A DNA stretch of 64,000 nt from Seleniivibrio woodruffii (GCF_004339245.1 NZ_SMGG01000003.1:87106-151105); one strand, 5' to 3'; shown: positions 9,338 through 55,805, counted from the stretch's first letter. Made by a program: numbers and translations. Notes: generated from the letters alone by a model not told the origin.

Positions 9338-9368
9338 GGCTCCGCTTAAAGCGGAGCCTTTTTTATTT
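9338..9368 (+). terminator. Rho-independent terminator
   Basis: GGCTCCGC-ttaaa-GCGGAGCC stem followed by a TTTTTTATTT run. Confidence 0.8.
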
Positions 9369-9459
9369 GCACGATGACGGTTTCGGCACAGAATCTGATT
9401 GCAGGTGCACTTTATCTGTCAGCCTCTGGAGGTTATGATAGCCCCTAAAGGAGGCAGAC

Positions 9460-32495: not shown

Positions 32496-32618
32496 TTATT
32501 TATCCGTCTTCTTGGGTTTGCAGAGTTTTTCTTTCTTATTCGACTGCGCACCGCATTTGGAACATTCGAAATCCTTCTCTTTGTCCTTTTTCGGTTTCTC
32601 ACCGCACTTTTTGCTCAT
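32496..32618 (-). CDS. 40-aa Lys-rich, 4-Cys small protein translationally coupled to ppk1
   Basis: Its ATG overlaps the ppk1 TGA stop (ATGA). Sequence MSKKCGEKPKKDKEKDFECSKCGAQSNKKEKLCKPKKTDK, with Cys at positions 5, 19, 22 and 33. Confidence 0.5.
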   Translation of the reverse strand: MSKKCGEKPKKDKEKDFECSKCGAQSNKKEKLCKPKKTDK

Positions 32619-34642: not shown

Positions 34643-34724
34643 GTTAAACTAGCCCCCCTGCTGTTTCTATTGGGATCTCTTAGTCATTCTGAACCCGAAG
34701 GGTAAAGAATCACTGATCAACCCG

Positions 34725-34750
34725 GACTCTTCGCTCCGCTCAGAGTGACG
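34725..34750. repeat. Dispersed intergenic repeat, copy R4 (short subtype GACTCTTCGCTCCGCTCAGAGTGACG)
   Basis: Lies in the ppx-ppk1 spacer and matches the right arm of the 47810..47836 copy. Confidence 0.7.
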
Positions 34751-34757
34751 CAGAATA

Positions 34758-36275: not shown

Positions 36276-37801
36276 ACCAGCCTTACAGGGAGTTTCAAAA
36301 GCTTAGCCAGCATATCCCTGTTTCTCTCAAAATCTTTTATTTCAAACGTAATGTCCTTGTCGGACACTGGTCTGATATCTATGGCAACTGGGGTGACGTT
36401 AACGTCAAGCCTGTCTATAAGCCCTTTGTGGGTTCTGTCCAGAGCTATCGCAAGCCTGAGCAGAGCCGTCAGTTTCTCAACCCTCAGCTGAAGCGAAAGG
36501 CAAAGATCGTTGAAATCGCCGTGCGCCGCTTTGGGCATGCTCTTTCTGTGATATCTGGCTATGCTGGCAATGGCCTCCACCTCGTCGTGTGTATAGCCCA
36601 CCAGCTCCGAATGCTTTATCATATAATAAGAGTGCTTATGATGTTTGGAATAAGCAATGTGTTTGCCGATATCCCTCAGCATCGCCGCCGCCTCAAGAAG
36701 ATACCAGTCCTTCTCAATAAGCCCCATGCGGTCTTTAAGCCCGTCAAAGAGCATTCTGGCCAGTTTCGCCACCTGAACGGCGTCCCTCTCGTCAAAGTCG
36801 AATTTGTTGCCCACCTCAATCAGCCTCGCATAGCGCACGTTGTCCATGCTGTTCTGCTGAAAAGGAAGCTCTATACCCATCCTGTTTATGGTGTCGATGG
36901 TGATTCCCGCCCGAAGTCCACCTGTCAGAGTGTAGAAACCGTCTATTCCCGTCTCTTCCAGAACCATGTCGGTCTGGATGGCCGCCGCAAGGATTATGTC
37001 CGCCCGTTTCTCCTCCATCCCCTCTATCTTCACCCGCTCCGCAGTGGTTTTTCCTCTGATGTCGCTGATGAATTTTTTCAGGAATTTCCGCTCAACGTAT
37101 TTCACCTGACTGTCACGCAGGTTCTTATCCCTGTAGTGACAGATCACTCCGGCGTTGTTCATGGAACCGCCTGTGCAGATGAGCATCTCAAGCCCTTTGC
37201 CCGGCTTCAGTTTATCAATATAGTCCTTAATGTGAGCCTTCATGGCAATTATCTGCGCCGACGTGGGCGGGTCGCCTTCCAGAAACTCACGGGTGAGCCT
37301 GTTGCAGCCCAGAGGCAGGCTTTTCGCCTTGTCCACCTCGCCGTCACGGACTATGGTATATTCCGCACTTCCGCCGCCTATATCGGTTATGAGAGCGTTG
37401 CGCCCTTTAAGTTCAAAATTTGCGCTGGCGGCCAGATAGGTGAGCCTCGCCTCCTCCTGTCCGCTTATGACCTCAATCTTTATCCCGCATTCCTGCTCAA
37501 CAATGTTAAGCGTCTCCCCGAGGTTGTCCGCCTCTCTGAAGGCCGCAGTGGCAATAGCTCTTATGGTTTTGCATCCCCTGCTCTCTGCAAGCCGCTTAAC
37601 ATTTTTGAGCGTGGAAACTATTGTTTCGATGGTATCTTTGGAGAAGTACCCCTGAGTGTATATCGCATCGCCGAGGCGTATCATCTCCTTATAGTCTTCA
37701 AGGACACGGTAGCTTTTGTCCTTCACCTCGGAAATCTGAAGACGTAAGGAGTTGCTGCCTATATCGGCAACAGCCACTTTGACGTTATCGCTTGATCGCA
37801 T
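36272..37801 (-). CDS. Second Ppx/GppA-family phosphatase (tandem paralogue)
   Basis: VAVADIGSNSLRLQISE motif, 509 aa. Its stop overlaps the downstream ppx start by 4 nt (ATGA). Confidence 0.85.
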   Translation of the reverse strand: MRSSDNVKVAVADIGSNSLRLQISEVKDKSYRVLEDYKEMIRLGDAIYTQGYFSKDTIETIVSTLKNVKRLAESRGCKTIRAIATAAFREADNLGETLNIVEQECGIKIEVISGQEEARLTYLAASANFELKGRNALITDIGGGSAEYTIVRDGEVDKAKSLPLGCNRLTREFLEGDPPTSAQIIAMKAHIKDYIDKLKPGKGLEMLICTGGSMNNAGVICHYRDKNLRDSQVKYVERKFLKKFISDIRGKTTAERVKIEGMEEKRADIILAAAIQTDMVLEETGIDGFYTLTGGLRAGITIDTINRMGIELPFQQNSMDNVRYARLIEVGNKFDFDERDAVQVAKLARMLFDGLKDRMGLIEKDWYLLEAAAMLRDIGKHIAYSKHHKHSYYMIKHSELVGYTHDEVEAIASIARYHRKSMPKAAHGDFNDLCLSLQLRVEKLTALLRLAIALDRTHKGLIDRLDVNVTPVAIDIRPVSDKDITFEIKDFERNRDMLAKLLKLPVRLV

Positions 37802-37838
37802 ATTTACTCCCGCAGAAAAGCCTTATTGATGAAGTATA

Positions 37839-39170
37839 TCAAATTCCCAGCGACTTTTTAACCCGTTTCTTTCCTTTACGGAAAATTCGGATAAGCTCCA
37901 CCGCCTGCTCCCGCTCCTGAGCCTTTTTCATTGCCAGAACTGCCATGATATATCCGCAGGCCGCCAGCAGTTTCGGGTCGGTCTCTGAGTTCAGCCTCTC
38001 CTGCATGTGTCCGCACTGAACGGACAGGTCGTTGTATCTGCCCAGACTGTCCTGAAGCGAACGCAGACGGGTCAGAACGTCCGCAGTGTTCTGCTCTTTA
38101 ATGAACAGCCCGAAAAATTCTATGCAGTATCTCAGCTTTTTGAAGGCTATACGGACACTGTGTATCTGCGCATCCTCCGACTCGCCGTCCACCCCTCCGG
38201 TCATAAGCTCCACCCTGCCGAATATCTTCGCCAGAGCTTTTGCGGCGGCCTTCGAGGTGTTCACAAAGCCTCTGCGGCCTATCTCCGCACGGGAGTTTAT
38301 CAGCCGTTCCCATTCGGCAAGGCTGTTATTATACTCCTCTGATGTCAGAAAATTCTGAAGCAATTCATAACTTTTATCCCGCTCCGCCCTGAAATGTGAT
38401 TTAAGCGGCTCAAAGGACTGCTTCATATCATCGGGCAGGATATCTTCATAGCCCTCAAGCTCTTCAAGATACACATCCATGTCCCTTGCCCTTCCGGTGT
38501 ATTCACCGAGGGATTTAAAGAACTGTCTGAAACGCATCTCTCTGTCTTCGGAATAGACACCCTTTAGCATTGACATTGCCGAACGGGTTCTGCGCACGGA
38601 GACACGGAAATCGTGGAGAAACTCAGCATCATACCCTTTCAGTATCCCGTCGGTGTTCAGGCGCATTATATTTATGAGGTCTGAGTGAACCCTCTGCATG
38701 GATTCCCAGAGAACGGCATCGCTGTCGGCGGGGCACTGCACCCTTGTGGTGTAGTCCAGCATCGGGTCACCGCACCTGGCCGCCGCACACGCAACCGCCT
38801 GCCCGAAGCCTTTCAGCTCCTCAGCGCAGTAATGGAATGCGAAATCTTCCTGCGGCTCCTCAGTGTATATAATATATGATGAACCCATGGCATAAAGACG
38901 CCCCTTTATGCCGCCTGCATCAAAAGAGTGTTCAGTCACGGGCAATTTCAGCTTTTCAAACAGATATCTTCCTGAGTATCCGGCTTTTGTGTCCGCTTCC
39001 TGATTGAAAAGGAATCTGTCCTTTCCGTCTGACCAGACAACCCTTCCGGTTCGTACCAGCTGCCATTCGAAGGTATCAAATACCGTTATCTCATAATCCC
39101 TGAGCTTTCTGTAGCGCAGACGGAACTTTCTGTCCGATGCAGGTTTGATGTCGGAAATATAGTACGGCAT
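37839..39170 (-). CDS. CYTH (triphosphate tunnel) plus CHAD domain protein
   Basis: N-terminal CYTH-like beta region and a C-terminal helical CHAD-like region with conserved His/Arg/Lys. I chose ATG 39170 as the start, directly after the sixA stop. Confidence 0.65.
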   Translation of the reverse strand: MPYYISDIKPASDRKFRLRYRKLRDYEITVFDTFEWQLVRTGRVVWSDGKDRFLFNQEADTKAGYSGRYLFEKLKLPVTEHSFDAGGIKGRLYAMGSSYIIYTEEPQEDFAFHYCAEELKGFGQAVACAAARCGDPMLDYTTRVQCPADSDAVLWESMQRVHSDLINIMRLNTDGILKGYDAEFLHDFRVSVRRTRSAMSMLKGVYSEDREMRFRQFFKSLGEYTGRARDMDVYLEELEGYEDILPDDMKQSFEPLKSHFRAERDKSYELLQNFLTSEEYNNSLAEWERLINSRAEIGRRGFVNTSKAAAKALAKIFGRVELMTGGVDGESEDAQIHSVRIAFKKLRYCIEFFGLFIKEQNTADVLTRLRSLQDSLGRYNDLSVQCGHMQERLNSETDPKLLAACGYIMAVLAMKKAQEREQAVELIRIFRKGKKRVKKSLGI

Positions 39171-39171
39171 A

Positions 39172-39627
39172 TCAGAGCAGAGCCTTCTGCTGGATAAGGT
39201 TGACGAGAACACTGTCCTCAATGTGGGCAATGGAGCCCTTCTTGAGCTGAAGCCTCAGTGCTTTGCCGCCGGTGATGAACGATATCACCTCCGACAGATC
39301 AGGCTCGTGCCCCACAACTGCCAGAGGCGAAGCATGCCTCCAGTCGGAAACGGTCTCCAGATAGTCCTTTATCTTCGCACCAGGATTAAGCCTCTCCCTG
39401 ATGTCGTATTTGACACCGCAAAGTTCCGATATTATCGAGGCGGTCTCCACAGAGCGCACCGCTGCGGATGTCAGCACTGCGGCCGGCTTGTCGTAAATAT
39501 TGAAAAATCGGGCGAACGCCCTCTTTGCACGAACCTTTCCCCTGTCGGTAAGCGGCCTGTCCAGATCCCGGCCTTTAAAAACCTCTCTGTCCTCTGCATG
39601 GGCGTGACGTATCAGATACACTATCAT
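39172..39627 (-). CDS. sixA: Phosphohistidine phosphatase SixA-like (histidine phosphatase superfamily)
   Basis: MIVYLIRHAHAE RHG motif. 151 aa. Confidence 0.8.
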   Translation of the reverse strand: MIVYLIRHAHAEDREVFKGRDLDRPLTDRGKVRAKRAFARFFNIYDKPAAVLTSAAVRSVETASIISELCGVKYDIRERLNPGAKIKDYLETVSDWRHASPLAVVGHEPDLSEVISFITGGKALRLQLKKGSIAHIEDSVLVNLIQQKALL

Positions 39628-39959: not shown

Positions 39960-40033
39960 AAATCTCTCCAAAAAACGAAAACGGCGGCCCATCTGACCGC
40001 CATAATCGCTTAACTTAACACCTTTACAGATTC

Positions 40034-40648
40034 TTACCCGAGGGGCAGAACTGTTCTTTTATAAACTTCGTTGAGAACCTGCGCCGCGCCTACATACATT
40101 GCAGACAGACCGCAGAGAACGCCTTCAAATCCGGCAAATTTCTTGAGCGATGCGCTCTCGAACATATCGCCGATAGCAAGAAGCATGAACAGGATAACCA
40201 GTAGGAAGAAAACAACCTGAAGGCCTTTGTTCAGCTTGAATGTGCCTATGAAAAGGATAAGGGAGAAGAAGCCCCACAGGAAAAGGTATGCAGACATTGC
40301 AACCGTATCGGGTTTTTCAAATCCCATCTTGGGCAGAACGATTATACCCACCAGTGTGAGCCAGAACAGACCATATGAAGTAAAGGCCACTGTGCCGAAA
40401 GTATTTTTCTTTTTCCATTCCATCATACCAACGATGATCTGTCCCAGACCGCCATAGAAAATACCCATTGCGAGTATTCCGCTGTCCAGAGGGAAAAGAC
40501 CGATGTTATGCAGGTTAAGAAGAATTGTAGTAAGACCGAATCCCATAAGTCCGAGAGGAGCAGGATTTGCGGTGGAGTCTGCGATTACTGTTTCCGCAAT
40601 CTGTCCGATAGCTGCTTCAGTATTCACAGCTTCAACTTTGTTGCTCAT
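40034..40648 (-). CDS. satP: GPR1/FUN34/YaaH-family acetate/succinate channel
   Basis: [14 protein letters not shown] signature and six TM segments. 204 aa. Confidence 0.88.
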
Positions 40649-40815
40649 GCTATACCTCCAAAATATAATAGAAAATAATCAATAACCTTGGTTATCTTCA
40701 AGTTATCAACTTTTGCTGAATAAGGTATACATCACGATTTTTTGACATTCAATAAGAATTTATCATGCGTAAACAAGGTTAATTAATGCTTCATGATTTA
40801 AAAACGTAGTTTTAA

Positions 40816-40837
40816 CTTTTTAGCATATGCTAAAAAG
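40816..40837. promoter_or_regulatory. Perfect 22-bp palindrome CTTTTTAGCATATGCTAAAAAG (candidate operator)
   Basis: Exact dyad symmetry within the AT-rich island, about 170 bp upstream of the satP start. Confidence 0.4.
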
Positions 40838-41574
40838 CCTATTAATCAGAACATTTGCTGATATATTAATAATAGATTCATTTTAAGTAAAACCAAAAAT
40901 ATCCAATTAAAATTACATTATGTTCTATTTTATTTTTTTCATACAAGCTGAAAAATTTTAGCCTATACAGGACATCATTTACCACCTCAGCCCCCTTATA
41001 AAAGGATTTTTACGCCATTGCTTAACCTGTAAACACTTCTGGTTAATATTTACCAAAAGCATATCTCCCATATCTGTTTCTTTCATCAAAAATACACATT
41101 TTCGGCCAGCGTTGTCAGACAGGCTTACTTTTTATACAAGAATACAAAACTTTGTTTCTTTATGATTAATATTTGACTGAAATTCCAACCAGTAAATTCA
41201 TCATAAATACCATTTTTAAAGCACTGATTGAATAACTTCGGTTTTATAACATGTTACTGCAAAACCTGCACAAAGCATTTCAAAGAGCATCTGGCATGGC
41301 ATACGCACGACACTTCATCAGGATTTTGTTAACCAGTTATTACCACCCCTTATGTGAGCGGAGGCTTGTATAACCTCTTTTTCTGTTAATGAACGATTTA
41401 ACCTTTGCGCAACTGAATTTACCCCGAATTAAAATCAGCATATCATCAATATATTATGCATACATCACACGGTATTTTATATTCTGGTTATATTTTTTCT
41501 GCCAATTTATCCTATGTTGCCAACTATTTTCTGAATTAAACAAACTATAGTTTGCGACCGAAACAATATTTTTA

Positions 41575-41603
41575 TTGACACAGGAAATAATTTGCTAAAT
41601 AAT
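41575..41603 (+). promoter_or_regulatory. Predicted sigma70 promoter driving the Phe-rich leader
   Basis: TTGACA-N17-AATAAT. The predicted TSS falls at or just before the leader ATG at 41610, so the transcript may be leaderless. Confidence 0.45.
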
Positions 41604-41609
41604 CTATCC

Positions 41610-41684
41610 ATGAATATGAACAGATTTTTTGCAGCAGCTTCATTTTTCTTTTTTGGTTTCTTTTGGTGCTCAAGCCCTGAGTAA
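41610..41684 (+). CDS. Phe-rich leader peptide (24 aa, MNMNRFFAAASFFFFGFFWCSSPE)
   Basis: 8 Phe and 1 Trp in 24 codons. Lies 30 nt upstream of a strong terminator and 110 nt upstream of the binding-protein gene. Confidence 0.6.
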   Translation: MNMNRFFAAASFFFFGFFWCSSPE

Positions 41685-41715
41685 ACCGTGGAGTTCTGCT
41701 TAACAAGCTGACAAA

Positions 41716-41749
41716 GGGCTGTGAGGAACGAACTCACAGCCCTTTTTTT
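41716..41749 (+). terminator. Attenuator terminator of the Phe leader
   Basis: GGGCTGTGAG-gaacgaa-CTCACAGCCC 10-bp stem followed by T7. The leader 3' end GCTCAAGCCC (41668..41677) can pair with the 5' arm as an antiterminator. Confidence 0.7.
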
Positions 41750-41794
41750 GTTTCAGCCTTCAAATAACATGTTTTATATATCGGAGGTATCAGG

Positions 41795-42907
41795 ATGAAA
41801 AAATCGGTTCTTACGGCACTTCTGCTTCTCGTTTCTGTCTGCGCCTACGCAGAAATAAGGATTGGCGCACTACTCGCACTCTCAGGCCCCATATCAAACC
41901 TCGGCAAACCCGGTCAGGAAATTATTGACGGTGTTGTCGAAGAGGCCAACAAAAAAAACCTGCTCGGCGACAAGATAAGAGTGATATCATACGACACCCA
42001 GTCACTGCCGGACAGAGCGCAAACCTACGCCAAAAAGCTCATAGCCAAGGACAAGGTTGACGTGATAGTCGGTCCCAACGGCACGGGCGAGGCACTGTCG
42101 GTCATCGGAGAGGCTATGTCCTCAAAAACACCGATAATGGCATTCGCAGGCGGAACCTCAGTTGTCGAACCCCTTAAACCCTACATATTCAAATCACCCC
42201 AGAAAACATCAACAGCAATCGAAAAAGCATTCAATTATCTGAAAAAGAAAGGCCTCACAAGAATTGCAGTTGCCGCTGACGCAACGGGATTCGGCCAGGA
42301 CGGTCTGGACCAGATAAACAAATATTCCTCAGGACTCACCATTACCGCCATTGAAAAGTTCAACGCAACCGACAACGACATGAGCACACAGATGTCGAAA
42401 CTGCTGTCAACAAAGCCTCAGGCAGTCGTTATCTGGACAGTGGGCAGAGCGGGCGCAATTGCAGCTAAAAACCTTCGTGCGCTTGACAAGAACATTCTTA
42501 TGGTTCAGTCACACGGCATAGCCGACAACTCATACCTTAAACTTGCGGGCGATGCCGCCGAAAACACGGTCATGCCCTCGGTTAAGCTGACAGTGGCATC
42601 AAGCCTCCCCGCAAACGATCCCCAGAAAAAGGTTATCGATGCTTTCGTAGCCAAATACGGCAAGCTCATCGATGAGACATCCGTTCACGCAAGCTATGCA
42701 TATGACGGCATAAACCTTGTTCTGTCCGCACTGAAAAAGGCAAAGGCCGAAAAGATAACACTTCAGCAGGCTCTGGAGAAGACCACTAAGTTTGTGGGTG
42801 TCACCGGAGTTTATAACATGAGCAAAAACGACCACTGCGGCCTCGACCTCTCTTCAATGGTCATGGTTCGGGTGAAGAACGGCCAGTTTGTTCTGGAAGA
42901 AATGTAA
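41795..42907 (+). CDS. ABC transporter periplasmic binding protein, LivJ/LivK (branched-chain/aromatic amino acid) family, copy 1
   Basis: Signal peptide and a Leu/Ile/Val-binding protein (LIVBP)-fold PBP, 370 aa. It is a paralogue of the next gene. Confidence 0.8.
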   Translation: MKKSVLTALLLLVSVCAYAEIRIGALLALSGPISNLGKPGQEIIDGVVEEANKKNLLGDKIRVISYDTQSLPDRAQTYAKKLIAKDKVDVIVGPNGTGEALSVIGEAMSSKTPIMAFAGGTSVVEPLKPYIFKSPQKTSTAIEKAFNYLKKKGLTRIAVAADATGFGQDGLDQINKYSSGLTITAIEKFNATDNDMSTQMSKLLSTKPQAVVIWTVGRAGAIAAKNLRALDKNILMVQSHGIADNSYLKLAGDAAENTVMPSVKLTVASSLPANDPQKKVIDAFVAKYGKLIDETSVHASYAYDGINLVLSALKKAKAEKITLQQALEKTTKFVGVTGVYNMSKNDHCGLDLSSMVMVRVKNGQFVLEEM

Positions 42908-42922
42908 TTATAAGTTTATAAA

Positions 42923-42951
42923 GGTTACGGTATCCGCCGTAACCTTTTTTT
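42923..42951 (+). terminator. Intergenic hairpin/terminator between the two binding-protein genes
   Basis: GGTTACGG-tatccg-CCGTAACC stem followed by a TTTTTTT run. Confidence 0.6.
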
Positions 42952-42962
42952 CTGGAGGATAT

Positions 42963-44075
42963 ATGAAAAAGATTCTCATAGCCGCATCTGTACTCCTTCT
43001 CAGCATATCTGCATATGCAGAGGTGAAGATAGGTGCGCTTCTGGCTCTCACAGGGCCTATCTCGAATATCGGCAAGCCCTCGCAGGAGATTCTGGAAGGG
43101 GTCATAGCCGATGCAAACAAGGCAAAGTTCATGGGCGAGCCCATAACCCTTATCACCTATGACACTCAGGGGATGCCCGACAAAACGATGCTCTTCGCAA
43201 AAAGACTCATCAACAAGGATGAGGTCAATGTCATAGTCGGCCCCACATCAACAGGCGAGGCGATGTCTATCCTCGGCTCCATTATGGAAGCCCAGATACC
43301 CACAATGGGATTTGTGGGCGGAACTCCCCCTGTTGAACCCGTCCGTCAGTACATGTTCAAGTCGCCCCAGAAAACATCAACAGCTGTTGAAAAAACCTTC
43401 GGCTATCTGAAAAAGAAAGGCCTGACAAAGATCGGCGTTGTCGTTGACGCTACCGGCTTCGGTCAGGACGGGCTTGATCAGATAAACAAATACGCCGCAG
43501 GAATGACCATCACAGGCGTTGAAAAATTCAACATGACCGACACGGATATGACAACCCAGATGAAAAAGATTCTGGACACAAAGCCTCAGGCCATAGTGGT
43601 GTGGACGGTGGGCAAGGCGGGTGCAGTAGCCGCCAAGAGTCTCCGTGCCCTTGACAAGAACATCCCCCTCATCCAGTCCCACGGCATAGCGGATTTCGCC
43701 TATACCAAGCTGGCGGGTGATGCGGCCGAAGGCTCCATTATGCCCGCTCTCAAAATAGTCGTTGCAAATCAGCTCCCCGCAAACGACCCCCAGAAAAAAG
43801 CAATCGAGCTTTTCAACAAACGCTACGGAAAGCTCATCGACGAGACATCGGTTCACGCCATCTATGCATATGACGGGCTGAACCTGATGCTGAACGCACT
43901 GAAACGCTCAAAAAATGAGAAGATAACTGTAATTCAGGCTCTTGAGACCACAAAGAATTTCACAGGCGTCACAGGAGTCTATAACCTTTCAAAAACAGAC
44001 CACTGCGGTCTGGATGCTTCTTCGCTGGTCATGGTGAAGATCAAGAACGGTCAGTTTGTACTGGAAGATATGTAA
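42963..44075 (+). CDS. ABC transporter periplasmic binding protein, LivJ/LivK family, copy 2
   Basis: GGAGGA Shine-Dalgarno and ATG at 42963 (MKKILIAASVLLLSISAYA). Roughly 60% identical to copy 1. Confidence 0.8.
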   Translation: MKKILIAASVLLLSISAYAEVKIGALLALTGPISNIGKPSQEILEGVIADANKAKFMGEPITLITYDTQGMPDKTMLFAKRLINKDEVNVIVGPTSTGEAMSILGSIMEAQIPTMGFVGGTPPVEPVRQYMFKSPQKTSTAVEKTFGYLKKKGLTKIGVVVDATGFGQDGLDQINKYAAGMTITGVEKFNMTDTDMTTQMKKILDTKPQAIVVWTVGKAGAVAAKSLRALDKNIPLIQSHGIADFAYTKLAGDAAEGSIMPALKIVVANQLPANDPQKKAIELFNKRYGKLIDETSVHAIYAYDGLNLMLNALKRSKNEKITVIQALETTKNFTGVTGVYNLSKTDHCGLDASSLVMVKIKNGQFVLEDM

Positions 44076-44082
44076 TACAAAA

Positions 44083-44113
44083 ATCCCCCTCGGCTGAGGG
44101 GGATTTTTTTTAT
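44083..44113 (+). terminator. Strong rho-independent terminator
   Basis: AATCCCCCTC-ggct-GAGGGGGATT stem followed by a T9 run. Confidence 0.85.
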
Positions 44114-44132
44114 TATCCACTCGGCATCAGCT

Positions 44133-44160
44133 GAGATTCTTCGTTACACTCAGAATGACT
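44133..44160. repeat. Dispersed intergenic repeat, copy R6 (degenerate: GAGATTCTTCGTTACACTCAGAATGACT)
   Basis: Aligns with the short subtype GAGACTCTTC...CAGAGTGAC. Confidence 0.5.
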
Positions 44161-44289
44161 CTTTTTGAACATGCCTGACTGACACACGGCAACACATTTA
44201 CAGGCATAACCAGAAGCCTTTTTTCTTTAAATTATTGTTTCATTGGTGTAGTATTTCAGAATTCTGTCATAAAATTAACGGTGATTCAG

Positions 44290-46032
44290 ATGGTCAACGG
44301 TTTCTTTCTGGGCAACGAGCTGATAGCTCTCGCCGCTGTAAATTCCGGCGTTAAAAGCGCATATGCCTATCCCGGCACTCCCTCCAGTGAAATCCTCTCT
44401 GCGTTTCAGAAGTTCGCACCAGAGCGTTACGCTCAATGGTCGCTGAACGAAAAGATAGCTCTGGAACTGGCCGCAGGCGAGGCCATATCCGGTTCTTCAA
44501 CTCTCTGCTGTATGAAAATGGTGGGACTGAACGTAGCCGCCGATCCGCTTTTCAGCGTGGCCTACACAGGCGTTGCGGGCGCAATGGTGCTTGTTTCCGC
44601 CGACGATCCCGGCCCCTACAGCAGCCAGACCGAGCAGGACAGCCGTATGTATGCGGTGAGCGCAAAGATGCCCGTTCTGGATCCATGCAACCCGCAGGAT
44701 GCCTACAGGCTGACCATGCTGGCATATGATATATCTACTAAATACAAGCTTCCGGTAATGGTGCGACCGGTTATGCGTGTCTGTCACTCCCGCCAGAATT
44801 TTGAGACTGGCGAGGCTGCGGCACAGCCCCTTCATGGGCAATTCCAAAAGGACATGCCACGCTGGGCGGCAACTCCTAAGTTCCGCCGTATTCTCCATGA
44901 AAAACTGAACAGAAGCCTCGACCTACTCGCTGCCGAGATGGCACCGAAAATACCCGAAAAGAAATACGACATGGCAGTGGTTGCCTCCGGCTATGCCTAT
45001 GCCATGGCGAAAGACATAATAGACGAACTGAATCTGCCCTTCGACATCATAAAGGTCGATATGCCCTATCCTCTGGACAGGCAGTTCGTAATCGAAACCG
45101 AGCTGGTCTACGACAGGATAGTGGTTCTGGAAGAGACCTTTCCCGTTATCGAACATAACTTTACAATAAAGACCGTCGGCAGGCTGAACGGACTTATCCC
45201 CTCCGAAGGGGAGCTGACGCCCGACATCATCGCCGACATACTGCTCACCACGGCGGGCATACAGCACGAACGTGAAAAGGCGGAGGCGGAAACCGCCGAA
45301 ACTCCCGTTAACCTGAAACCCCGACTCTGCGCAGGATGCGGACACAGACCGGCTTTCTATGCCATGAAGCTGGCGGCTCCGGACGGTATTTTCCCCGGCG
45401 ATATCGGCTGTTATACTCTGGGCATAAATCTGAACGCAGTTGACACCTGCATATGCATGGGAGCATCCATCACATTTGCAGAGGCTCTTAAACGATCCAA
45501 TCCCGAAAAACCCGTAATATGCACCATAGGCGATTCCACTTTCTTCCACACTGGAGTGACCGGACTCACCAACGCAGTTGTGAACAACGCACCCATAGTG
45601 GTTGCCATTCTGGACAACGAAACCACTGCAATGACAGGTTTTCAGCCCGTGCCCCATCTGTCGGGCAAGCTCACCATTGAGCAGGCATGCAGAGGCGCAG
45701 GAGTTAACCATATCGTCACCGTTGATCCCTATAATCTGAAAAAGGGGACGGAGGCGCTGAAACAGGCTATCGCATACGCCCACACGGACAACGCTCCGGC
45801 AGTGGTAATCTTCAACAAAGAGTGCGTTACCAAAACGAGATATAAGAACAAAAAGACGGCGGAGATCTCCGATGCCTGCACCGACTGCACCATCTGCTAT
45901 GAAAAATTTGAATGTCCCGCCATCTCCCGCAACAGGGTTAAAAGGATGGCAGAGATAGACCAGAACGCCTGCGTGGGCTGCATGGTCTGCATTCAGGTCT
46001 GCCCGATAAAGGCCATAGGGGTGAAGAAATGA
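44290..46032 (+). CDS. iorA: Indolepyruvate:ferredoxin oxidoreductase alpha subunit
   Basis: Thiamine pyrophosphate (TPP) binding domains and two C-terminal 4Fe-4S ferredoxin motifs (CTDCTICYEKFECP, CVGCMVCIQVCP). A GTG at 44281 is an alternative start. Confidence 0.85.
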   Translation: MVNGFFLGNELIALAAVNSGVKSAYAYPGTPSSEILSAFQKFAPERYAQWSLNEKIALELAAGEAISGSSTLCCMKMVGLNVAADPLFSVAYTGVAGAMVLVSADDPGPYSSQTEQDSRMYAVSAKMPVLDPCNPQDAYRLTMLAYDISTKYKLPVMVRPVMRVCHSRQNFETGEAAAQPLHGQFQKDMPRWAATPKFRRILHEKLNRSLDLLAAEMAPKIPEKKYDMAVVASGYAYAMAKDIIDELNLPFDIIKVDMPYPLDRQFVIETELVYDRIVVLEETFPVIEHNFTIKTVGRLNGLIPSEGELTPDIIADILLTTAGIQHEREKAEAETAETPVNLKPRLCAGCGHRPAFYAMKLAAPDGIFPGDIGCYTLGINLNAVDTCICMGASITFAEALKRSNPEKPVICTIGDSTFFHTGVTGLTNAVVNNAPIVVAILDNETTAMTGFQPVPHLSGKLTIEQACRGAGVNHIVTVDPYNLKKGTEALKQAIAYAHTDNAPAVVIFNKECVTKTRYKNKKTAEISDACTDCTICYEKFECPAISRNRVKRMAEIDQNACVGCMVCIQVCPIKAIGVKK

Positions 46033-46538
46033 TTCAGGGAATTATCTGCGGCAAGGGCGGACAGGGTGTCATAACCCTTAACGCCATGATAGGCACTCTG
46101 GCGGCAAACATGAATATTCCCGCAGTATCTGCGGAGACCCACGGAATGGCCATGCGTGGCGGTTCTGTGGCAACGTACATAAAGATAGGTCAGGGGCTGA
46201 GCGCATCCGTTGCGGAGCATTCGGCGGATTTCATAATCAGTCTGACAAAGGATGAGGCGCTCAGAAACCTGAACTTCATCAAAAAGGACGGAATACTCAT
46301 TGTGGACAGCGAGAAACCGCTGGACATAAAAGGGATAAGAGTTATCGCACTGCCAGCATCCGACATTGCCGAAGAAAAATTCGGCGGGTGGATATACGGC
46401 GGTCAGGTGCTGTTGGGCATCTTTCTGGGCTGTTTCGGAGCAATTGACACCGCAAAAGCTCTGGAAATCCTCAGAAACGCACCTAAAATCAGTATCGAAG
46501 CCATAGAATACGGGGTGAAACATGCACAAGCTGACTGA
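46029..46538 (+). CDS. iorB: Indolepyruvate:ferredoxin oxidoreductase beta subunit
   Basis: Begins MIQGIICGKGGQGVIT, the pyruvate:ferredoxin oxidoreductase gamma-like fold. Its start overlaps the iorA stop by 4 nt. Confidence 0.85.
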   Translation: MIQGIICGKGGQGVITLNAMIGTLAANMNIPAVSAETHGMAMRGGSVATYIKIGQGLSASVAEHSADFIISLTKDEALRNLNFIKKDGILIVDSEKPLDIKGIRVIALPASDIAEEKFGGWIYGGQVLLGIFLGCFGAIDTAKALEILRNAPKISIEAIEYGVKHAQAD

Positions 46539-47745
46539 TATTCAGCTTCTGAAACTGGGAACAACGCTTCATCACATAAAGAAGTCGAACCCTTACTATT
46601 TTTCCAGATATGAGACAGACAGGGTGACAAGCTATGAGGATCTGACGAAACTTCCCTTTATCACAAAGGATGTCCTGCGTCAGGGCTACCCCTTTGCATA
46701 TGCCTGTGCAGACATAAAAAACTGCGTGCGCATGCATATGTCAAGCGGCACCACAGGCAAGCCCATCATAAACCCCATGACCGAAGGGGACGTGAACCAG
46801 TGGGGCGAGATCATGGCACGCTGCTACACCACCGCAGGGGTGACAAGCGAAGACGTGGTACAGATAACCCCGTCTTTCGGACTTTTCAACGGCGGTTTCG
46901 GTTTCCACTACGGGGCTGAAAGGCTGAAAAGCTTCATAATACCCATGGGTGCAGGCCGCTCCATGCTTCAGCTCCAGTTCATCAAAGACCTTGAAACGAC
47001 CTGCCTCTGCGCAATCGCATCCTATCCCCTCAGGCTGATGGAGGTTGCTAAGCAGGAGGGCTTCAACTTTAAAGAGACAAAACTCCGTGTGGGCATCTTC
47101 GGTGCGGAAACATGGACGGACGGCATACGCCGCAGAATAGAAAAAGAGATGAACATCGAAACTTTCGATATCATCGGCATGACGGAAACAGGCGGAGTCG
47201 GTCTGGGCATCGACTGCAAAGACCACAGCGGAATCCACGTCTGGGACGATCACTACATAGTGGAGATAGTGGATCCTGAAACGGGTGAACCTCTGCCCGA
47301 CGGCGTTGAGGGTGAGATGGTTGTAACAACGCTGACCCGTGAAGGTCTGCCAATGATACGCTACCGCACCCGTGACATAACAAAAATAGTCAGCAGAGGT
47401 CTCTGCAAATGCGGACTGAACACGGTTAAGATAGCCAGACTGAAAGGCCGCACGGACGATATGCTGAAAGTGAAAGGGGTCAACTTCTACCCCGCACAGA
47501 TAGAATCTATCCTGATGGAGTTCACCGAACTTGGCGAGGAATACAGAATCATCCTCGACAAGAAAAAGGGCAAAGGGGATGTTACCCTTGCCGTTGAAAC
47601 AAACGGCATAAGCGACGACACCAGAGACCGTCTGGACACTACTCTGTATGATTTCCTCGGCTTCCGTGTTGACGTTCAGTACCTGAAACCGGGAACACTG
47701 GAACGCTCTCAGGGCAAAGCAATTCGGGTCATCGACAACAGATGA
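46522..47745 (+). CDS. paaK: Phenylacetate-CoA ligase family adenylate-forming enzyme
   Basis: PaaK-like motifs (MSSGTTGKPI, YGxTE region) and a C-terminal ACT-like domain. 407 aa. Confidence 0.8.
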   Translation: MHKLTDIQLLKLGTTLHHIKKSNPYYFSRYETDRVTSYEDLTKLPFITKDVLRQGYPFAYACADIKNCVRMHMSSGTTGKPIINPMTEGDVNQWGEIMARCYTTAGVTSEDVVQITPSFGLFNGGFGFHYGAERLKSFIIPMGAGRSMLQLQFIKDLETTCLCAIASYPLRLMEVAKQEGFNFKETKLRVGIFGAETWTDGIRRRIEKEMNIETFDIIGMTETGGVGLGIDCKDHSGIHVWDDHYIVEIVDPETGEPLPDGVEGEMVVTTLTREGLPMIRYRTRDITKIVSRGLCKCGLNTVKIARLKGRTDDMLKVKGVNFYPAQIESILMEFTELGEEYRIILDKKKGKGDVTLAVETNGISDDTRDRLDTTLYDFLGFRVDVQYLKPGTLERSQGKAIRVIDNR

Positions 47746-47767
47746 AACAATAAAGCCGAAAGCTATA

Positions 47768-47836
47768 CCGTCACTCTGAGGCTTATACCGAAGAGTCTCT
47801 GTCTTACATGAGACTCTTCACTCCGTTCAGAGTGAC
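47768..47836. repeat. Palindromic pair of the dispersed repeat (long copy plus inverted short copy)
   Basis: CCGTCACTCTGAGGCTTATACCGAAGAGTCTC ... GAGACTCTTCACTCCGTTCAGAGTGAC, between the convergent paaK and TRIC genes. Confidence 0.7.
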
Positions 47837-47846
47837 AAAAATGCAC

Positions 47847-48455
47847 CTATCTCTCCCCTGCTCTGGGCAGGTGAAATTCCAGCTTAAGGGTTATCATCCG
47901 CACTGCGAAAACCAGCAGCGCACTGACAGCCGCATTAAGCGACTGATCCACACCGAAATGGTGCAGTGTGCAGTAGAGCGCACCGCCTATTATGCATGCC
48001 GAGGCATACACCTCACGGGTGAGCACCAGCGGCGTGGCATTTATGAGCACATCACGGATCATACCGCCGACAGTACCCGTCATAACCCCGAATATCATCG
48101 AACCGACATAGCCCACGCCGGAGCTGAGGGCGATGTTTATACCCATCACGTTAAAAAGACCAAGCCCCAGCGCATCCATCACCACCAGAAGGTTATAGCT
48201 TCTTTTCACATGGCTGTGGAAAAGTATGACCAGCATGGCCGCCCCGATGGACAGAAACAGATAATTGGAGTCCTTGAAAACGAACGGAGGCACACGACCC
48301 AGCATTGTGTCACGAAGGGTTCCGCCGCCCACTGCCGTAACAATGGCCAGAAAGGTCACCCCGTAAAGGTCGAGTTTTTTACGCACTCCCGCCAGCGCAC
48401 CGCTGACAGCGAATGCGAAAGTACCCAAAAGATCAAGGGCATATAAAATCGTCAT
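47847..48455 (-). CDS. TRIC/UPF0126 (YadS-like) trimeric cation channel family membrane protein
   Basis: Two repeats of the glycine-rich TM motif (AVSGALAGV, TAVGGGTLRD). Confidence 0.75.
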   Translation of the reverse strand: MTILYALDLLGTFAFAVSGALAGVRKKLDLYGVTFLAIVTAVGGGTLRDTMLGRVPPFVFKDSNYLFLSIGAAMLVILFHSHVKRSYNLLVVMDALGLGLFNVMGINIALSSGVGYVGSMIFGVMTGTVGGMIRDVLINATPLVLTREVYASACIIGGALYCTLHHFGVDQSLNAAVSALLVFAVRMITLKLEFHLPRAGER

Positions 48456-49198
48456 CCCTGCTCCCCTGTTGCCGCCGCCATGACCATGTCGTTCCGGAAC
48501 ATGCGGCAGGCCAGATATGATGTTAGAATATTAACAGCAAAGATCATATACATCACCACGAGCTGATACACAATGGCTTTCAGCGGAGAAACACCCGCCA
48601 TGAGAAGTCCCGCGGCAAGCCCCGGCAGAAGCACGACACCCAGAGAAGCTATGTTGTTAAGCACGGGCATTATACCCGCCCGAACAGCCGCCACCACCGA
48701 ATCTTTTGCGGCGATTTCCATTGTCAGCCCCAGCGCAAGCATGCCCTGAATGGCCGCTATGTTCGCTTTGCATTCGGCTCTCAGCCTGTCGACGCTGATG
48801 CTGTGGGCATTCATGCAGTTGCCCACAACCATCCCCGCCACAGGCAGAATTGCGTTCATCTGAACAGGCACGGCACCGCTCAGGATAACAGGCATCAGTC
48901 CCAGCATTGACGGGATATAAATGGAAAGAAAACCCCTGATGATGTGTCCCTCTCCGGTCTTCGACCTGCCCTTTGCCGTGTATGCGGCAAAAACCGACAT
49001 AAAAGCGGCAAAATAGGTCACATGCCATACATTATTGAGCCTGAAGATATATTCCAGCACAAGCCCCATAAGGAACATCTGCACCACAGAGCGCACAGCC
49101 GCCGTGCTGATGCTTTTGTGCATGTTCAGCCCCAGCTTTTCCGATGCGATCAGGGTGAAGACCAGAAATCCGGCAATAGCGATGTATGAACCCGTCAT
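48452..49198 (-). CDS. Polytopic membrane protein, UPF0014/FetB-like putative ABC permease
   Basis: 248 aa with 6-7 TM segments. Start overlaps the TRIC stop by 4 nt. The family assignment is tentative. Confidence 0.5.
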   Translation of the reverse strand: MTGSYIAIAGFLVFTLIASEKLGLNMHKSISTAAVRSVVQMFLMGLVLEYIFRLNNVWHVTYFAAFMSVFAAYTAKGRSKTGEGHIIRGFLSIYIPSMLGLMPVILSGAVPVQMNAILPVAGMVVGNCMNAHSISVDRLRAECKANIAAIQGMLALGLTMEIAAKDSVVAAVRAGIMPVLNNIASLGVVLLPGLAAGLLMAGVSPLKAIVYQLVVMYMIFAVNILTSYLACRMFRNDMVMAAATGEQG

Positions 49199-49331
49199 TA
49201 TCCCTTCCGTTGTTTAAAGTCATTATCAGTAAAAAAAACTTACAGTTGAAATTCCATTATGTATAATCTATGATTACTTGATATACAACTCTTGTGTTAC
49301 TATATAGTTTCACATTTATTTGGTGATATAT

Positions 49332-52055
49332 ATGTCATTCTTAAGGCGCAGGCTGACAGCCGACCTGTCATTGACTGATATTGTAAGCCTTATTCTTTTA
49401 TCCGCTCTCGGATTTGCCGGAAACTACTTCAAAATCGGGATTTTCTTTAATGTAGACTTCCTTTTCGGAAGCATCTTCACAATGTATGCCGTCAAAAGAT
49501 ACGGAATGATCGGCGTTATTCCGGCATTCATAGCATCTTTATACACCTATACCCTCTGGAATCACCCATATGCAATAATAATCTTCACATCCGAAGCACT
49601 GTTTGTTGCGTTTCTGCGCAGAAAGGCCGCAGGGGTGATAGTCCACGACCTCATATACTGGCTGACCGCAGGACTGCTCCTGATATTCATATCGTACCAT
49701 TTCATAATGGGTGTTCCGGTTTCAACAGTCAAGCTTGTGATATTGAAGCAGAGCATAAACGGAATCGTCAACACCGTCTGCGCAACCATTCTTTTTTACG
49801 GTGTAAACTACTACGGCAAGATAACGGGTTCCGGTTTCAGGCGGATATCGTTCCGGCAGACCTTTTTCATACTCATACTGATGATAGCCGCTTTTCCGGC
49901 GATCGCATATGTGGTGTTCGGAGTTAAAACCCAGACAAATGAGATCACTGGGGAGCTGAAAGACGAACTGAACACCATGTACAACATGACCTCCATCTCC
50001 ATAGAATCCCTTCTGGACGAGGCCTACGGCAAGATAAACGGACTGGCGGATAAGGCCGCCTCCGAAGCCATGACGGATTCCGCCACCACCCTTGACGAAC
50101 ACATTGAGACTGTGCTCAATTCGTCTGAAATCTTCATCGGAATGGCTTTTCTAAGCCCCGACGCCAAAGCGGAGCATGTTTACATAAAAACGGATGAAAA
50201 AGTGAAACGGTTCAGCAATGTTGATTTCAGCGGTTCAGGCTATTACGAAGCCATAGGCAAAACCGATGCAACCTACGTTTCCGAAGCTACAAAAAGCTCT
50301 TTCAGGCCGGAGGGAACCCACGTTATCGTGATCATTAAACCTGTTAAGGACGAATCGGGATATCTGCTGGGGTTCATGCAGGCCAGTATGAATTTTGACA
50401 AAATACAGGGGCTTATGAGATCCGTCAGCAAGGATTCGGGCATAGACCTCACCCTTTCCGACAAAAACAGCACCGTGATAATAAACACTTCCGGCAGATT
50501 CAAAGGCGGCAATAAATTCAGCTATCCCGAAGGCTATGCGGCCTTTGACCACGACAGCAGAGGGATATTTATGAGTGCACCCATCCCTCAGAATAACCAC
50601 TCGGTTATGATCCGCTGGAGCAGTTCATTCTATGTCAAATCCGGAGAGCTTGCGCCTTCGGGACTCAAACTCACCGCACAGATGCCCCTTGCCTTACACA
50701 TGGGCAGAATAAACGATATCGGCTACAGGGCGCTTAAAATAATATATCTGGTCATAATACTCTGCATTGCCGCAGCAATGATAATCAGCAGACAGATATC
50801 CCTCCATCTGGAGAATCTTCAGACAAACACAGGGCTTATGCCGGAAAAGATACGCAAAGGGGAGAAAATTCCATCTGTTCAGTCTGTTTTTGCTGAAATA
50901 ACCGACCTTTCGGATCATTTTTCGGCAATGTCCAGACTGCTTTCCGAAAAATTCGGTGAGATAAGCCGCCAAAAGGGCGAACTTTCCCTGATAATGGACT
51001 CCATACCACTGATAATCTTTATGAAAGACACTGAAAACAACATAATCAGTGTAAACAGAACCGCCGCAGAAAGCATGGGGCTAAGCGCCTCAGGCACTGC
51101 AAGGCTCAACGTCTACAAACATTTCCCCTCTTTCGCAGACAGGGTTTATCACGACGACATAAAGGTCATAACCTCCAGATCACCTTTGCTGGGTATAATC
51201 CAGAAATATAACAGCCTGACCGTTAAGACCGACAAGATACCCGTCTTAAACGAAAAGGGGCAGGTGACCTCAATTCTGGTAATCTCAAGGGATATAACGG
51301 ACGAGCTGAAAGCTCAGGAAGAGAAGCAGAGGACACTGGAAACGCTTTATCAGCAGTCGAAAATGGCAGAGATGGGAGCCATGACAGCCGCCATTGCCCA
51401 CCAGTGGAAACAGCCTCTGAGCACTGTTTCGATTCTGACTCAGATGATTGAGTCCGAAATTTCCGACGGAAACCTCACGAACGAATCCCTTCTGACATAC
51501 ACAGGGCTGATGCTTAAGAACACTGATTTCATGAGCCAGACTGCGGACGATTTCACCCATTTCTTCAAGACTGAAAAGAAGAAGCAGATGTTCCGCCCCT
51601 GCGACACCATAACTGAGATATACGGAATAATTGACTCCCAGTTCCGCAGATACGGCATTGAGTTTATAACCAGAGAGCATGCACATTTCAGCGTTTACGG
51701 GTTTAAGAACGAGTTCAAACAGGTCTGTCTGAACCTTCTGGTGAACGCCAAAGATGCTCTGGCTGGCTCAAAAAAGGAAGATAAGCGGATTGAGGTTGCA
51801 TTCAGTCAGGATGATAACTACCGGATAATGACCTTTGAGGACAACGGCGGAGGGATATCGGAAGAACTTCTGCCGGACAGACTGTTTGAGATGTATCAGA
51901 CATCCAAAGGCGAAAGCGGAACAGGAATAGGCCTGTACATATGCAGGTCCATCATAGAGAACCATATGGGCGGAAAAATAACGGCTGAGAACACGGACAA
52001 AGGAGCAAGATTCACAATATATCTGCCGTCCGATCAGACGATAGCCCATGCCTGA
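49332..52055 (+). CDS. Sensor histidine kinase with N-terminal polytopic membrane domain, extracytoplasmic Cache-like region, PAS, HisKA and HATPase_c
   Basis: H-box AIAHQWKQPL and G-box GTGIGLYICRS. Paralogue of the next gene. The listed start at 49320 is TTG. Confidence 0.8.
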   Translation: MSFLRRRLTADLSLTDIVSLILLSALGFAGNYFKIGIFFNVDFLFGSIFTMYAVKRYGMIGVIPAFIASLYTYTLWNHPYAIIIFTSEALFVAFLRRKAAGVIVHDLIYWLTAGLLLIFISYHFIMGVPVSTVKLVILKQSINGIVNTVCATILFYGVNYYGKITGSGFRRISFRQTFFILILMIAAFPAIAYVVFGVKTQTNEITGELKDELNTMYNMTSISIESLLDEAYGKINGLADKAASEAMTDSATTLDEHIETVLNSSEIFIGMAFLSPDAKAEHVYIKTDEKVKRFSNVDFSGSGYYEAIGKTDATYVSEATKSSFRPEGTHVIVIIKPVKDESGYLLGFMQASMNFDKIQGLMRSVSKDSGIDLTLSDKNSTVIINTSGRFKGGNKFSYPEGYAAFDHDSRGIFMSAPIPQNNHSVMIRWSSSFYVKSGELAPSGLKLTAQMPLALHMGRINDIGYRALKIIYLVIILCIAAAMIISRQISLHLENLQTNTGLMPEKIRKGEKIPSVQSVFAEITDLSDHFSAMSRLLSEKFGEISRQKGELSLIMDSIPLIIFMKDTENNIISVNRTAAESMGLSASGTARLNVYKHFPSFADRVYHDDIKVITSRSPLLGIIQKYNSLTVKTDKIPVLNEKGQVTSILVISRDITDELKAQEEKQRTLETLYQQSKMAEMGAMTAAIAHQWKQPLSTVSILTQMIESEISDGNLTNESLLTYTGLMLKNTDFMSQTADDFTHFFKTEKKKQMFRPCDTITEIYGIIDSQFRRYGIEFITREHAHFSVYGFKNEFKQVCLNLLVNAKDALAGSKKEDKRIEVAFSQDDNYRIMTFEDNGGGISEELLPDRLFEMYQTSKGESGTGIGLYICRSIIENHMGGKITAENTDKGARFTIYLPSDQTIAHA

Positions 52056-55719: not shown

Positions 55720-55805
55720 CGGCGGATTATATCATTTCCCGCAGGTTTGTCAGCTTTTTATCCTCACAGGTGGTATATTTGCTTATAAAACCACCGGAGG
55801 CCCTC

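Follow-up and report, generated by a model that had tools for sequence, protein, structure and literature searches.

The 64,000-nucleotide stretch of Seleniivibrio woodruffii DNA analyzed here (the window) contains, on its + strand, two tandem genes for periplasmic solute-binding proteins (SBPs), SBP1 and SBP2, followed by an iorA-iorB-paaK gene trio and preceded by a short open reading frame (ORF) rich in phenylalanine codons. Counted from the first letter of the window, the features of this locus are as follows.

41575..41603, + strand: promoter P1, consisting of TTGACA, 17 nt and AATAAT, with 11/12 matches.
41610..41684, + strand: leader ORF, MNMNRFFAAASFFFFGFFWCSSPE, of 24 codons, 8 of them Phe, with its stop codon at 41682.
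41631..41700, + strand: leader hairpin ("protector", 1:2), with candidate antiterminator segments at 41669-41678 (CUCAAGCCCU) and 41686-41694 (GUGGAGUUC).
41713..41749, + strand: terminator of the proposed attenuator, a 13-bp stem (41713-45) with 7 G-C pairs, then a U7 run.
41795..42907, + strand: SBP1, a periplasmic Peripla_BP_6 protein placed in the aromatic-acid (cluster B-III-like) clade by Pfam, PDB sequence matches, AF2 and Foldseek.
42920..42954, + strand: intercistronic hairpin, a 12-bp stem (42920-47), then T7, with the SBP2 Shine-Dalgarno sequence right after it.
42963..44075, + strand: SBP2, paralogue of SBP1 (67% identity).
44079..44111, + strand: SBP2 terminator, a 13-bp stem (44079-108), then T8.
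44219..44254, + strand: putative promoter P2, consisting of a T-tract, TTTAAA (44226-31), a 17-nt spacer and TAGTAT (44249-54).
44290..46032, + strand: iorA-like gene, alpha subunit of an indolepyruvate-type 2-oxoacid:ferredoxin oxidoreductase (TIGR03336, 593.7 bits; POR_N, TPP_enzyme_C, Fer4).
46029..46538, + strand: iorB-like gene, POR gamma-type domain, short (169 aa; PF01558, 92 bits).
46522..47745, + strand: paaK-like gene, AMP-forming aryl-acid-CoA ligase (AMP-binding and AMP-binding_C_2; TIGR02155).

The identities of the five protein-coding genes are close to certain, and an initial annotation made from the sequence alone had named them, and the overlapping arrangement of iorA-iorB-paaK, correctly, with coordinates that were exact or within a few bases. 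SBP1 and SBP2 are each 370 aa long, carry Sec signal peptides (N-termini MKK...AYA/E) and match PF13458 (Peripla_BP_6) at 168 and 172 bits, respectively, against a cut-off of 31.7, covering profile positions 1-342/343; they are full-length Peripla_BP_6/HAAT-family SBPs with the type I periplasmic-binding fold. The possibility that SBP1 is a lipoprotein was considered and rejected, because Val occupies position -1 of its VSVC motif and SBP2 lacks Cys. The most likely start of iorA is the ATG at 44290, which lies behind GGTGA, the GTG at 44281 being merely a mechanical ORF start; gene calls in public assemblies put IorA at 580 aa. The start codon of iorB lies on the iorA stop codon in an ATGA overlap, while the paaK-like gene overlaps iorB by 17 nt. 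IorA contains POR_N, TPP_enzyme_C and two 4Fe-4S motifs, and a small POR-domain beta subunit is encoded directly 3' of it, which is the IorAB architecture. By these profile matches IorAB clearly belongs to the indolepyruvate:ferredoxin oxidoreductase (IOR) family, an assignment of family for which substrate equivalence is not established. The models that best match the ligase are TIGR02155 and NF041878, and its nearest PDB structures are 4R1L (a phenylacetate-CoA ligase by annotation, 367 bits, which we take to be the Bacteroides thetaiotaomicron enzyme) and then 2Y27. We call this ligase PaaK-like, since on these matches its substrate could be another arylacetate.

The same SBP1 protein is found, identical and with gene order unchanged, in several public assemblies, and a scan of species-representative genomes returned the locus in six further Deferribacterota genomes, whose SBP1 proteins are 70-88% identical: a Seleniivibrio woodruffii metagenome-assembled genome (MAG), Seleniivibrio sp. 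S2C1195, two Deferribacterales MAGs, UBA6793 and UBA6799. Each of these loci has a satP-like gene on the opposite strand, then ~1.1 kb of spacer, followed by SBP1, SBP2, iorA, iorB and paaK in that order. Upstream of SBP1 in these genomes lies the anatomy of an attenuator, namely a promoter, a short ORF with clustered Phe codons, an intrinsic terminator and then SBP1. P1 is the top-scoring sigma-70-like promoter site in 40600-48600, and its hexamers and spacing are kept in 7/7 Deferribacterota loci. Six of the Phe residues of the leader ORF fall within seven consecutive codons (41643-41663, the FFFFGFF run), and across both strands of the window this is the sole ORF of at most 45 codons with at least 5 Phe per 8 consecutive codons. 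The leader ATG starts 6 nt past the -10 hexamer (6-7 nt across the seven genomes) with no Shine-Dalgarno sequence, a promoter geometry from which the leader transcript is probably leaderless, starting at the A of the ATG. The attenuator terminator is found in 7/7 genomes, the stems of one sequence group (group B) differing in sequence, and no + strand gene lies upstream of 41713 for it to end. All seven genomes retain the promoter, the ATG distance, the reading frame, the Phe run, the stop codon and the terminator, even though the leader peptides form two diverged sequence groups, ...SFFFFGFFWCS... and ...FFFSFFFCFWH.... One Trp and one Cys codon are also kept in the leader in both groups (FFWC and FCFW; 41664-41669 in the window), and these may reflect an RNA-pairing constraint or a secondary sensing input.

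The Phe leader with terminator that had been reported upstream is thus present as ORF, P1 and terminator stem in seven genomes, and this anatomy together with its conservation argues strongly for a Phe-sensing leader-peptide attenuator upstream of SBP1. We regard such an attenuator as highly probable, its switching step being the part that is predicted. The minimum-free-energy fold of 41604-41760 (-49.8 kcal/mol, z = -3.5) forms both the long leader hairpin and the terminator, the former pairing sequence immediately 5' of the Phe run, together with the first codon of that run, with the region past the stop codon. When transcripts truncated before the 3' arm of the terminator are folded with a ribosome in the Phe run, the 5' arm of the terminator pairs upstream at -14 to -22 kcal/mol, in this window through pairing of CUCAAGCCCU with AGGGCUGUGAG; with the ribosome at the stop codon, the same folds leave the 5' arm free (-7.1 to 0 kcal/mol). 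This ribosome-position-dependent pairing of the 5' arm is predicted in all seven sequences.

Attenuators of this type de-repress on starvation for their cognate amino acid, as in trp, pheA and pheST. The proposed leader resembles the pheL-pheA and pheM-pheST systems of Gammaproteobacteria in having a Phe-codon ORF followed by an intrinsic terminator, in its predicted ribosome-position logic and in a target that would relieve Phe shortage; pheL genes carry Phe-codon runs (PMC3082878). Unlike pheL and pheM, whose targets are a biosynthetic enzyme or a tRNA synthetase, it has no Rfam match, a Deferribacterota host, an apparently leaderless ORF and periplasmic binding proteins as its targets. No Rfam family was found at the leader, either at the gathering threshold (whole window) or at E <= 10 (40649-44300), and RF01859 (Phe_leader) in particular gave no match at 41610-41750 at either threshold; weak Phe_leader and rnk matches fell on the SBP2 terminator, were terminator-driven and were rejected. 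By its predicted architecture, this Rfam-unrecognised leader would work like the pheL/pheM attenuators but is no member of RF01859. In the literature that we searched, no paper described a leader-peptide attenuator in Deferribacteres, or attenuation upstream of binding proteins of this kind.

Two further hairpins subdivide the locus. The region has 20 terminator-like sites, compared with 8.7 +/- 3.0 in shuffled sequences, and the three strongest of these hairpins are at 41713-45, 42920-47 and 44079-108, the latter two being the hairpin/T-run sites of the initial annotation displaced by a few bases. Because just ~15 nt remain between the intercistronic hairpin and the Shine-Dalgarno sequence and start codon of SBP2, SBP2 must be transcribed through it. 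Its stem is kept by compensatory changes in 6/6 related genomes, while its T-run is broken in some; we read this hairpin as a leaky terminator or an mRNA stabiliser. In one related locus (L012) a repeat resembling a miniature inverted-repeat transposable element (MITE), palindromic, is inserted in the loop of this hairpin. The same MITE-like repeat (...GAGACTGCCGCGTC...TCGCGAGGAGC...AGCGACGCGGCGATCTC...) is present in intergenic spacers of related Deferribacterota genomes and absent from the window; its copies lie at 11150-11240 in L012, ~12310-12400 in L011 and L013, ~12320-12400 in L016, 7840-7890 in L010 and 7650-7800 in L041.

Downstream of SBP2, the sequence of the 44079-44111 terminator is itself not conserved, and the last ~75 nt before iorA are the sole part of the spacer conserved in 7/7 genomes, with the same spacing in both groups. 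This block contains a T-tract and TTTAAA-17-TAGTAT, or TTTTCA-17-TATATT in group B. It scores under the threshold of our promoter scan; its conservation leads us to favor, with some reserve, a separate promoter P2 for iorAB-paaK. A sigma-54 promoter before iorA was rejected: inspection by eye showed no conservation of the GG/GC dinucleotides, and TC, not GC, at the -12 element. As judged from this layout, the attenuator demonstrably fronts SBP1 and SBP2 only, and the single phenylalanine-responsive unit originally proposed for the locus is not supported as stated, given a terminator or repeat before iorA in all seven genomes together with the P2-like block.

The initial annotation also described the binding proteins as LivJ-like, a description that did not survive comparison with known structures. 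The nearest PDB entries to SBP1 by phmmer are 7YLT (E = 1.4e-37), 3SG0, 4DQD, 3UK0, 3UKJ, 3TX6 and 4JB0 (range 1e-37 to 1e-28), with LivJ a remote match (E = 3e-5). The AF2 model of SBP1 (pLDDT 94) has a two-lobed alpha/beta pattern, and a Foldseek search of this model against the PDB places 3SG0 and 4DQD at the top, followed by 7YLT and then by p-coumarate/caffeate binders. Ranks 1-14 are all aromatic-acid binders if 7YLT, whose own description is uninformative, is counted as IadK2; the first amino-acid binders (4GNR and 3TD9) come at ranks 18-19 and E. coli LivJ at rank 34. We take 7YLT to be Variovorax IadK2 because the code occurs in the IadK2 paper and preprint, and the ligand assignment of 4DQD rests on its PDB entry title, "transporter in complex with 3-phenylpyruvic acid". 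In a BLASTP alignment to LivJ, the family-invariant His240 aligns to LivJ Glu226, and Val216 to LivJ Tyr202. Glu226 is presumably the residue that holds the ligand's alpha-ammonium, and Glu226 and Tyr202 together presumably hold the alpha-ammonium and alpha-carboxylate. The nearest folds are aromatic-acid binders, and the LivJ ammonium/carboxylate residues are not kept. This kinship to aromatic-acid binders, with His240 at the place of Glu226, makes aryl carboxylates, and not Phe, the likely ligands.

IadK2 binds indole-3-acetate at nanomolar affinity, belongs to the aromatic-acid subcluster B-III and has a tandem 70% paralogue, IadK3, that differs in specificity (PMC10374108). It is the best PDB sequence match to the SBPs, shares their fold (Foldseek E = 2e-31) and binds an arylacetate; the IadK2/IadK3 pair, like SBP1/SBP2, consists of tandem paralogues (~70% and 67% identical, respectively). 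Our comparison of the binding pockets is a mapping by sequence onto published IadK2 residues, of which Phe168 and Phe308 are conserved in B-III and Arg199 contacts the ligand (PMC10374108). Unlike in IadK2, to which identity is ~28%, the positions of Arg199, Phe308 and Trp172 are occupied by Ala/Met, His and Phe in the SBPs, and Phe168 corresponds to Asp162 at a part where the alignment is uncertain, so that the published pocket signature of cluster B-III is absent from SBP1 and SBP2. The SBP clade has invariant residues of its own, Phe132, Lys133, His240 and His347, and three of these (Lys133, His240 and His347) are common to the SBPs and 3SG0/4DQD. Furthermore, SBP1 and SBP2 differ from each other at residues 95-96, 116-118, 160-161 and 191, which adjoin the IadK2/IadK3 specificity positions; differences beside such positions suggest two related but distinct ligands, and the two proteins probably have different specificities.

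The top structural neighbors of the SBPs (TM 0.84-0.88) are the Rhodopseudomonas palustris proteins 3SG0/4DQD (3-phenylpyruvate) and CouP, RPA1789 (3TX6, 4F8J and 4JB0; p-coumarate). The R. palustris aromatic-acid binders are induced by their substrates, and leader-peptide control is not described for them in the papers on them used here. They are 25-27% identical to the SBPs and serve the catabolism of lignin-derived aromatics. The CouP gene adjoins that of a CoA ligase for its ligand (PMC3223731), the same logic of binder plus ligase that is seen here. On the model and the sequence comparisons, we lean towards an aromatic acid as the SBP ligand; among aryl carboxylates, we consider arylacetates (for example, phenylacetate) the most likely and arylpyruvates possible.

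As first reported, the SBP genes have no adjacent permease or ATPase genes. A tblastn search with queries from a related locus gave no livH-, livM-, livG- or livF-like match in the window, Pfam scans of its other large ORFs gave no BPD_transp_2 domain and no Liv-type ATPase, and Liv permease/ATPase genes were likewise not found within +/-10 kb in the 7 related genomes. It is common for orphan binding proteins to work with a transporter whose genes lie elsewhere (PMC3223731). More distant homologues are informative in this respect. Among 21 loci, mostly from Thermodesulfobacteriota, that encode 39-43% identical SBP homologues, livH-livM-livG-livF lies directly upstream of the SBP gene in 6, and a PaaK-like gene lies within 5 kb in 10. 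In 9 of those 10 the gene immediately upstream of the SBP gene encodes an in-frame fusion of the LivF ATPase with the PaaK-like part, and one locus, L021, reads iorA-iorB-livM-livG-...-livF::paaK-SBP-livH. These recurrent livHMGF and LivF::PaaK neighborhoods argue that the SBP family works with HAAT-type ABC transporters that pass their cargo to a PaaK-type ligase, which in turn points to arylacetate-like ligands and makes the adjacency to iorAB-paaK meaningful. The aromatic theme by which binding proteins and iorAB-paaK had been joined thus gains support from two sides, the kinship to phenylpyruvate, indoleacetate and p-coumarate binders and the recurrence of the SBP-PaaK(-IorAB) linkage in another phylum. 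The LivF::PaaK fusions themselves, of ~700 aa, occur in nine Thermodesulfobacteriota MAG loci (L017, L019, L021 at 7780-9888, L022, L028 at 4047-6176, L032, L034, L036 and L037), and suggest that import is physically coupled to CoA activation.

These data also bear on an alternative, that the SBPs bind Phe or other aromatic amino acids and constitute a high-affinity uptake system induced by Phe starvation, with iorAB-paaK a separately regulated neighbor. The logic of the attenuator would fit such uptake directly. The pockets lack the Arg that anchors the carboxylate in the aromatic-acid binders and are more polar at other positions (Asp162 and His298), and between the two units lie a terminator and what is probably a promoter of its own for iorAB-paaK. 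Set against this, the SBPs are much closer to aromatic-acid binders than to any LivJ/LivK amino-acid binder, they have His240 in place of the LivJ Glu that presumably holds the alpha-ammonium, and their homologues are fused to or adjoin CoA ligases, enzymes whose substrates are acids and not amino acids. We consider Phe uptake quite improbable as the function of this pair.

In Deferribacter species there is only one SBP, also an orphan (53-58% identical); a gene for a Zn-dependent alcohol dehydrogenase follows it, iorAB-paaK is not adjacent, and no Phe leader was found upstream of their SBP genes. The promoter region of these genes is conserved as TTGAC(A/T)TATTAAACA with a TTAAC-N7/8-GTTAA palindrome (7925-7985 in L010, L040 and L041) that is a probable transcription-factor operator.

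The reading that we favor, at a probability of about 0.5, is that two neighboring transcription units make up the locus and jointly provide a route to phenylalanine by the scavenging of aryl acids. The first unit would comprise P1, the leader, SBP1 and SBP2 under control of the leader-peptide attenuator. When Phe-tRNA is plentiful, the ribosome would reach the stop codon at 41682 and the 41713-45 terminator would form; when Phe-tRNA is scarce, the ribosome would stall in the FFFFGFF run, freeing the downstream segment to disturb the terminator and permitting read-through into SBP1 and SBP2, with the intercistronic hairpin lowering expression of SBP2 relative to SBP1. Periplasmic SBP1 and SBP2 made under Phe shortage would capture aryl acids and hand them to a Liv-type (HAAT) permease and ATPase whose genes would lie at another site in the genome. 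The second unit would comprise P2, iorA, iorB and the paaK-like gene. Its AMP-forming PaaK-like ligase would convert imported arylacetate to arylacetyl-CoA, IOR with reduced ferredoxin would carry out the reductive carboxylation of arylacetyl-CoA to arylpyruvate, and an unlinked aminotransferase would convert arylpyruvate to Phe. Within this scheme we infer the switch, the ligand identity, the partner permease, the direction of flux and the separate promoter of the second unit.

The anabolic, or reverse, direction of IOR would follow from the polarity of the attenuator, and it is supported by the Deferribacter species, in which absence of an adjoining iorAB-paaK goes together with absence of the Phe leader. 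Because it is AMP-forming, a PaaK-type ligase suits activation rather than ATP conservation. In bacteria, the conversion of phenylacetate to phenylalanine was already recognised at the level of physiology in rumen studies in the 1960s. Methanococcus maripaludis is documented to make aromatic amino acids from aryl acids by way of IOR (Porat et al., cited in PMC4162585). The iorAB and paaK trios of anaerobes are of the same enzyme families as the genes described here, which overlap at their stops and starts; unlike those trios, the present one is linked to a pair of aromatic-acid binding proteins and to a Phe attenuator, and it has a short IorB (169 aa). The setting likewise differs from that of IadK2, which sits in an aerobic auxin-degradation operon, whereas the SBPs are orphans beside IOR/PaaK behind a Phe attenuator. 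A fuller version of the favored reading, in which the locus is a Phe-starvation regulon for precursor salvage that joins a leaderless attenuator and two specialised orphan binders to reductive conversion by IOR/PaaK into aromatic amino acids, the SBPs capturing phenylacetate and a second aryl acid, is as a whole less likely than not.

The same genes might instead form a catabolic module, in which the SBPs import arylpyruvates or arylacetates, and IOR, acting by oxidative decarboxylation, and the ligase both convert them to arylacetyl-CoA as a source of energy or carbon. Desulfococcus multivorans and Desulfobacula toluolica form IorAB specifically on phenylpyruvate (PMC5109826), and this catabolic use of the same enzymes in sulfate reducers tells against anabolic flux. 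Homologous SBP/LivF::PaaK/IorAB clusters are found in Thermodesulfobacteriota groups such as Syntrophales, Desulfobaccales and Desulfomonilaceae, which include aromatic degraders. In addition, the crystal of the closest structural relative contained 3-phenylpyruvate, on which IOR acts when it runs oxidatively. An attenuator with Phe codons, on the other hand, raises expression when Phe-tRNA is scarce, which is the opposite of substrate induction; genes that would degrade phenylacetyl-CoA further (pad/paa genes and benzoyl-CoA reductase) were not found in the 64-kb window, and the Phe leader is limited to the Deferribacterota clade, not being found in the loci of the degraders. We judge a catabolic role to be unlikely.

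Several further observations weigh against a scavenging route. The antiterminator pairing is no more stable than pairing with shuffled upstream sequence (z = -0.9 to +0.9), and full-length minimum-free-energy folds keep the terminator at every ribosome position. The spacer between SBP2 and iorA is variable, a hairpin plus T-run or a repeat insertion splits the two genes in 7/7 genomes, and because the strong terminator (44079-44111) and the promoter-like block intervene, control of iorAB-paaK by Phe is not established. The partner permease and ATPase were not located in the window or within +/-10 kb of the related loci. The anchors characterised in IadK2 are not conserved (Arg199 becomes Ala/Met191, Phe308 becomes His298 and Trp172 becomes Phe166), so that neither the exact ligand nor its class can be read from the sequence, with Phe included among the options. 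The enzymes score below their NCBIfam equivalog cut-offs, IorA at 593.7 bits for IOR_alpha (TIGR03336; cut-off 650.9) and the PaaK-like protein at 361.8 bits for TIGR02155 (cut-off 646.3), while IorB, at 85-89 bits for the IOR_beta models (85.3 against a cut-off of 205.8), is well below. Finally, synteny among the seven genomes reaches unrelated flanking genes, and for this reason synteny alone is weak evidence for a functional link.

Taken at their most severe, the low scores of IOR and PaaK, the missing statistical support for the antiterminator and the extension of close-relative synteny across unrelated genes would describe adjacency without function, with SBPs that bind a non-aromatic acid, a Phe ORF that is no sensor and an iorAB-paaK set that acts on other 2-oxo acids; a T-rich stretch in an AT-rich spacer also easily yields Phe codons. 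We find this very unlikely, given that two diverged groups retain the same frame, ATG position relative to the -10, Phe run, stop codon and terminator, that the Phe-rich ORF is unique in 64 kb with no upstream gene in need of a terminator, and that the linkage of SBP, PaaK and IOR is seen independently in another phylum.

Other features of the window lie around the locus. The spacer from the satP-like gene (- strand) to P1, 40649-41574, is unusually long (~1.1 kb) and AT-rich, with a similar length in relatives, and the 40001-42000 bin that holds it has 38% GC compared with ~50% elsewhere; this spacer is probably non-coding, because non-synonymous changes have built up in its short ORFs among assemblies that are nearly identical. 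Just downstream of the locus are two tandem paralogous dCache_1-PAS histidine kinases (49320-52055, 911 aa, and 52137-54854, 905 aa), syntenic in related genomes and with no response regulator adjacent, which could sense small acids and regulate neighboring genes. A polyphosphate cluster of ppk1, two Ppx/GppA genes, a CHAD protein and a histidine phosphatase lies upstream at 32615-39627, and a PPK2 gene lies downstream at 55770-57275. The dnaA gene is at 15248-16585 on the - strand, ~26 kb upstream of the locus, and given its presence the window may be near the replication origin.

The leader-peptide attenuator, the aromatic-acid binding protein, IOR and the PaaK-type ligase are each of a known kind, and it is their combination that is informative. 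An attenuator shows what the cell needs when Phe is short, so its placement before aromatic-acid binders and beside iorAB-paaK constitutes a regulatory argument that the enzymes can run anabolically in a bacterium, from phenylacetate through phenylpyruvate to Phe. If the fuller version of the favored reading is true, this would be the first case of leader-peptide attenuation that governs uptake of a precursor rather than a biosynthetic enzyme, and it would provide regulatory evidence for the bacterial phenylacetate-to-phenylalanine route. The locus would also extend leader-peptide attenuation to Deferribacterota, with an apparently leaderless transcript, and to transport proteins as targets, alongside a widespread LivF::PaaK fusion, revealed by the homologous loci, that would couple ABC import to CoA activation.

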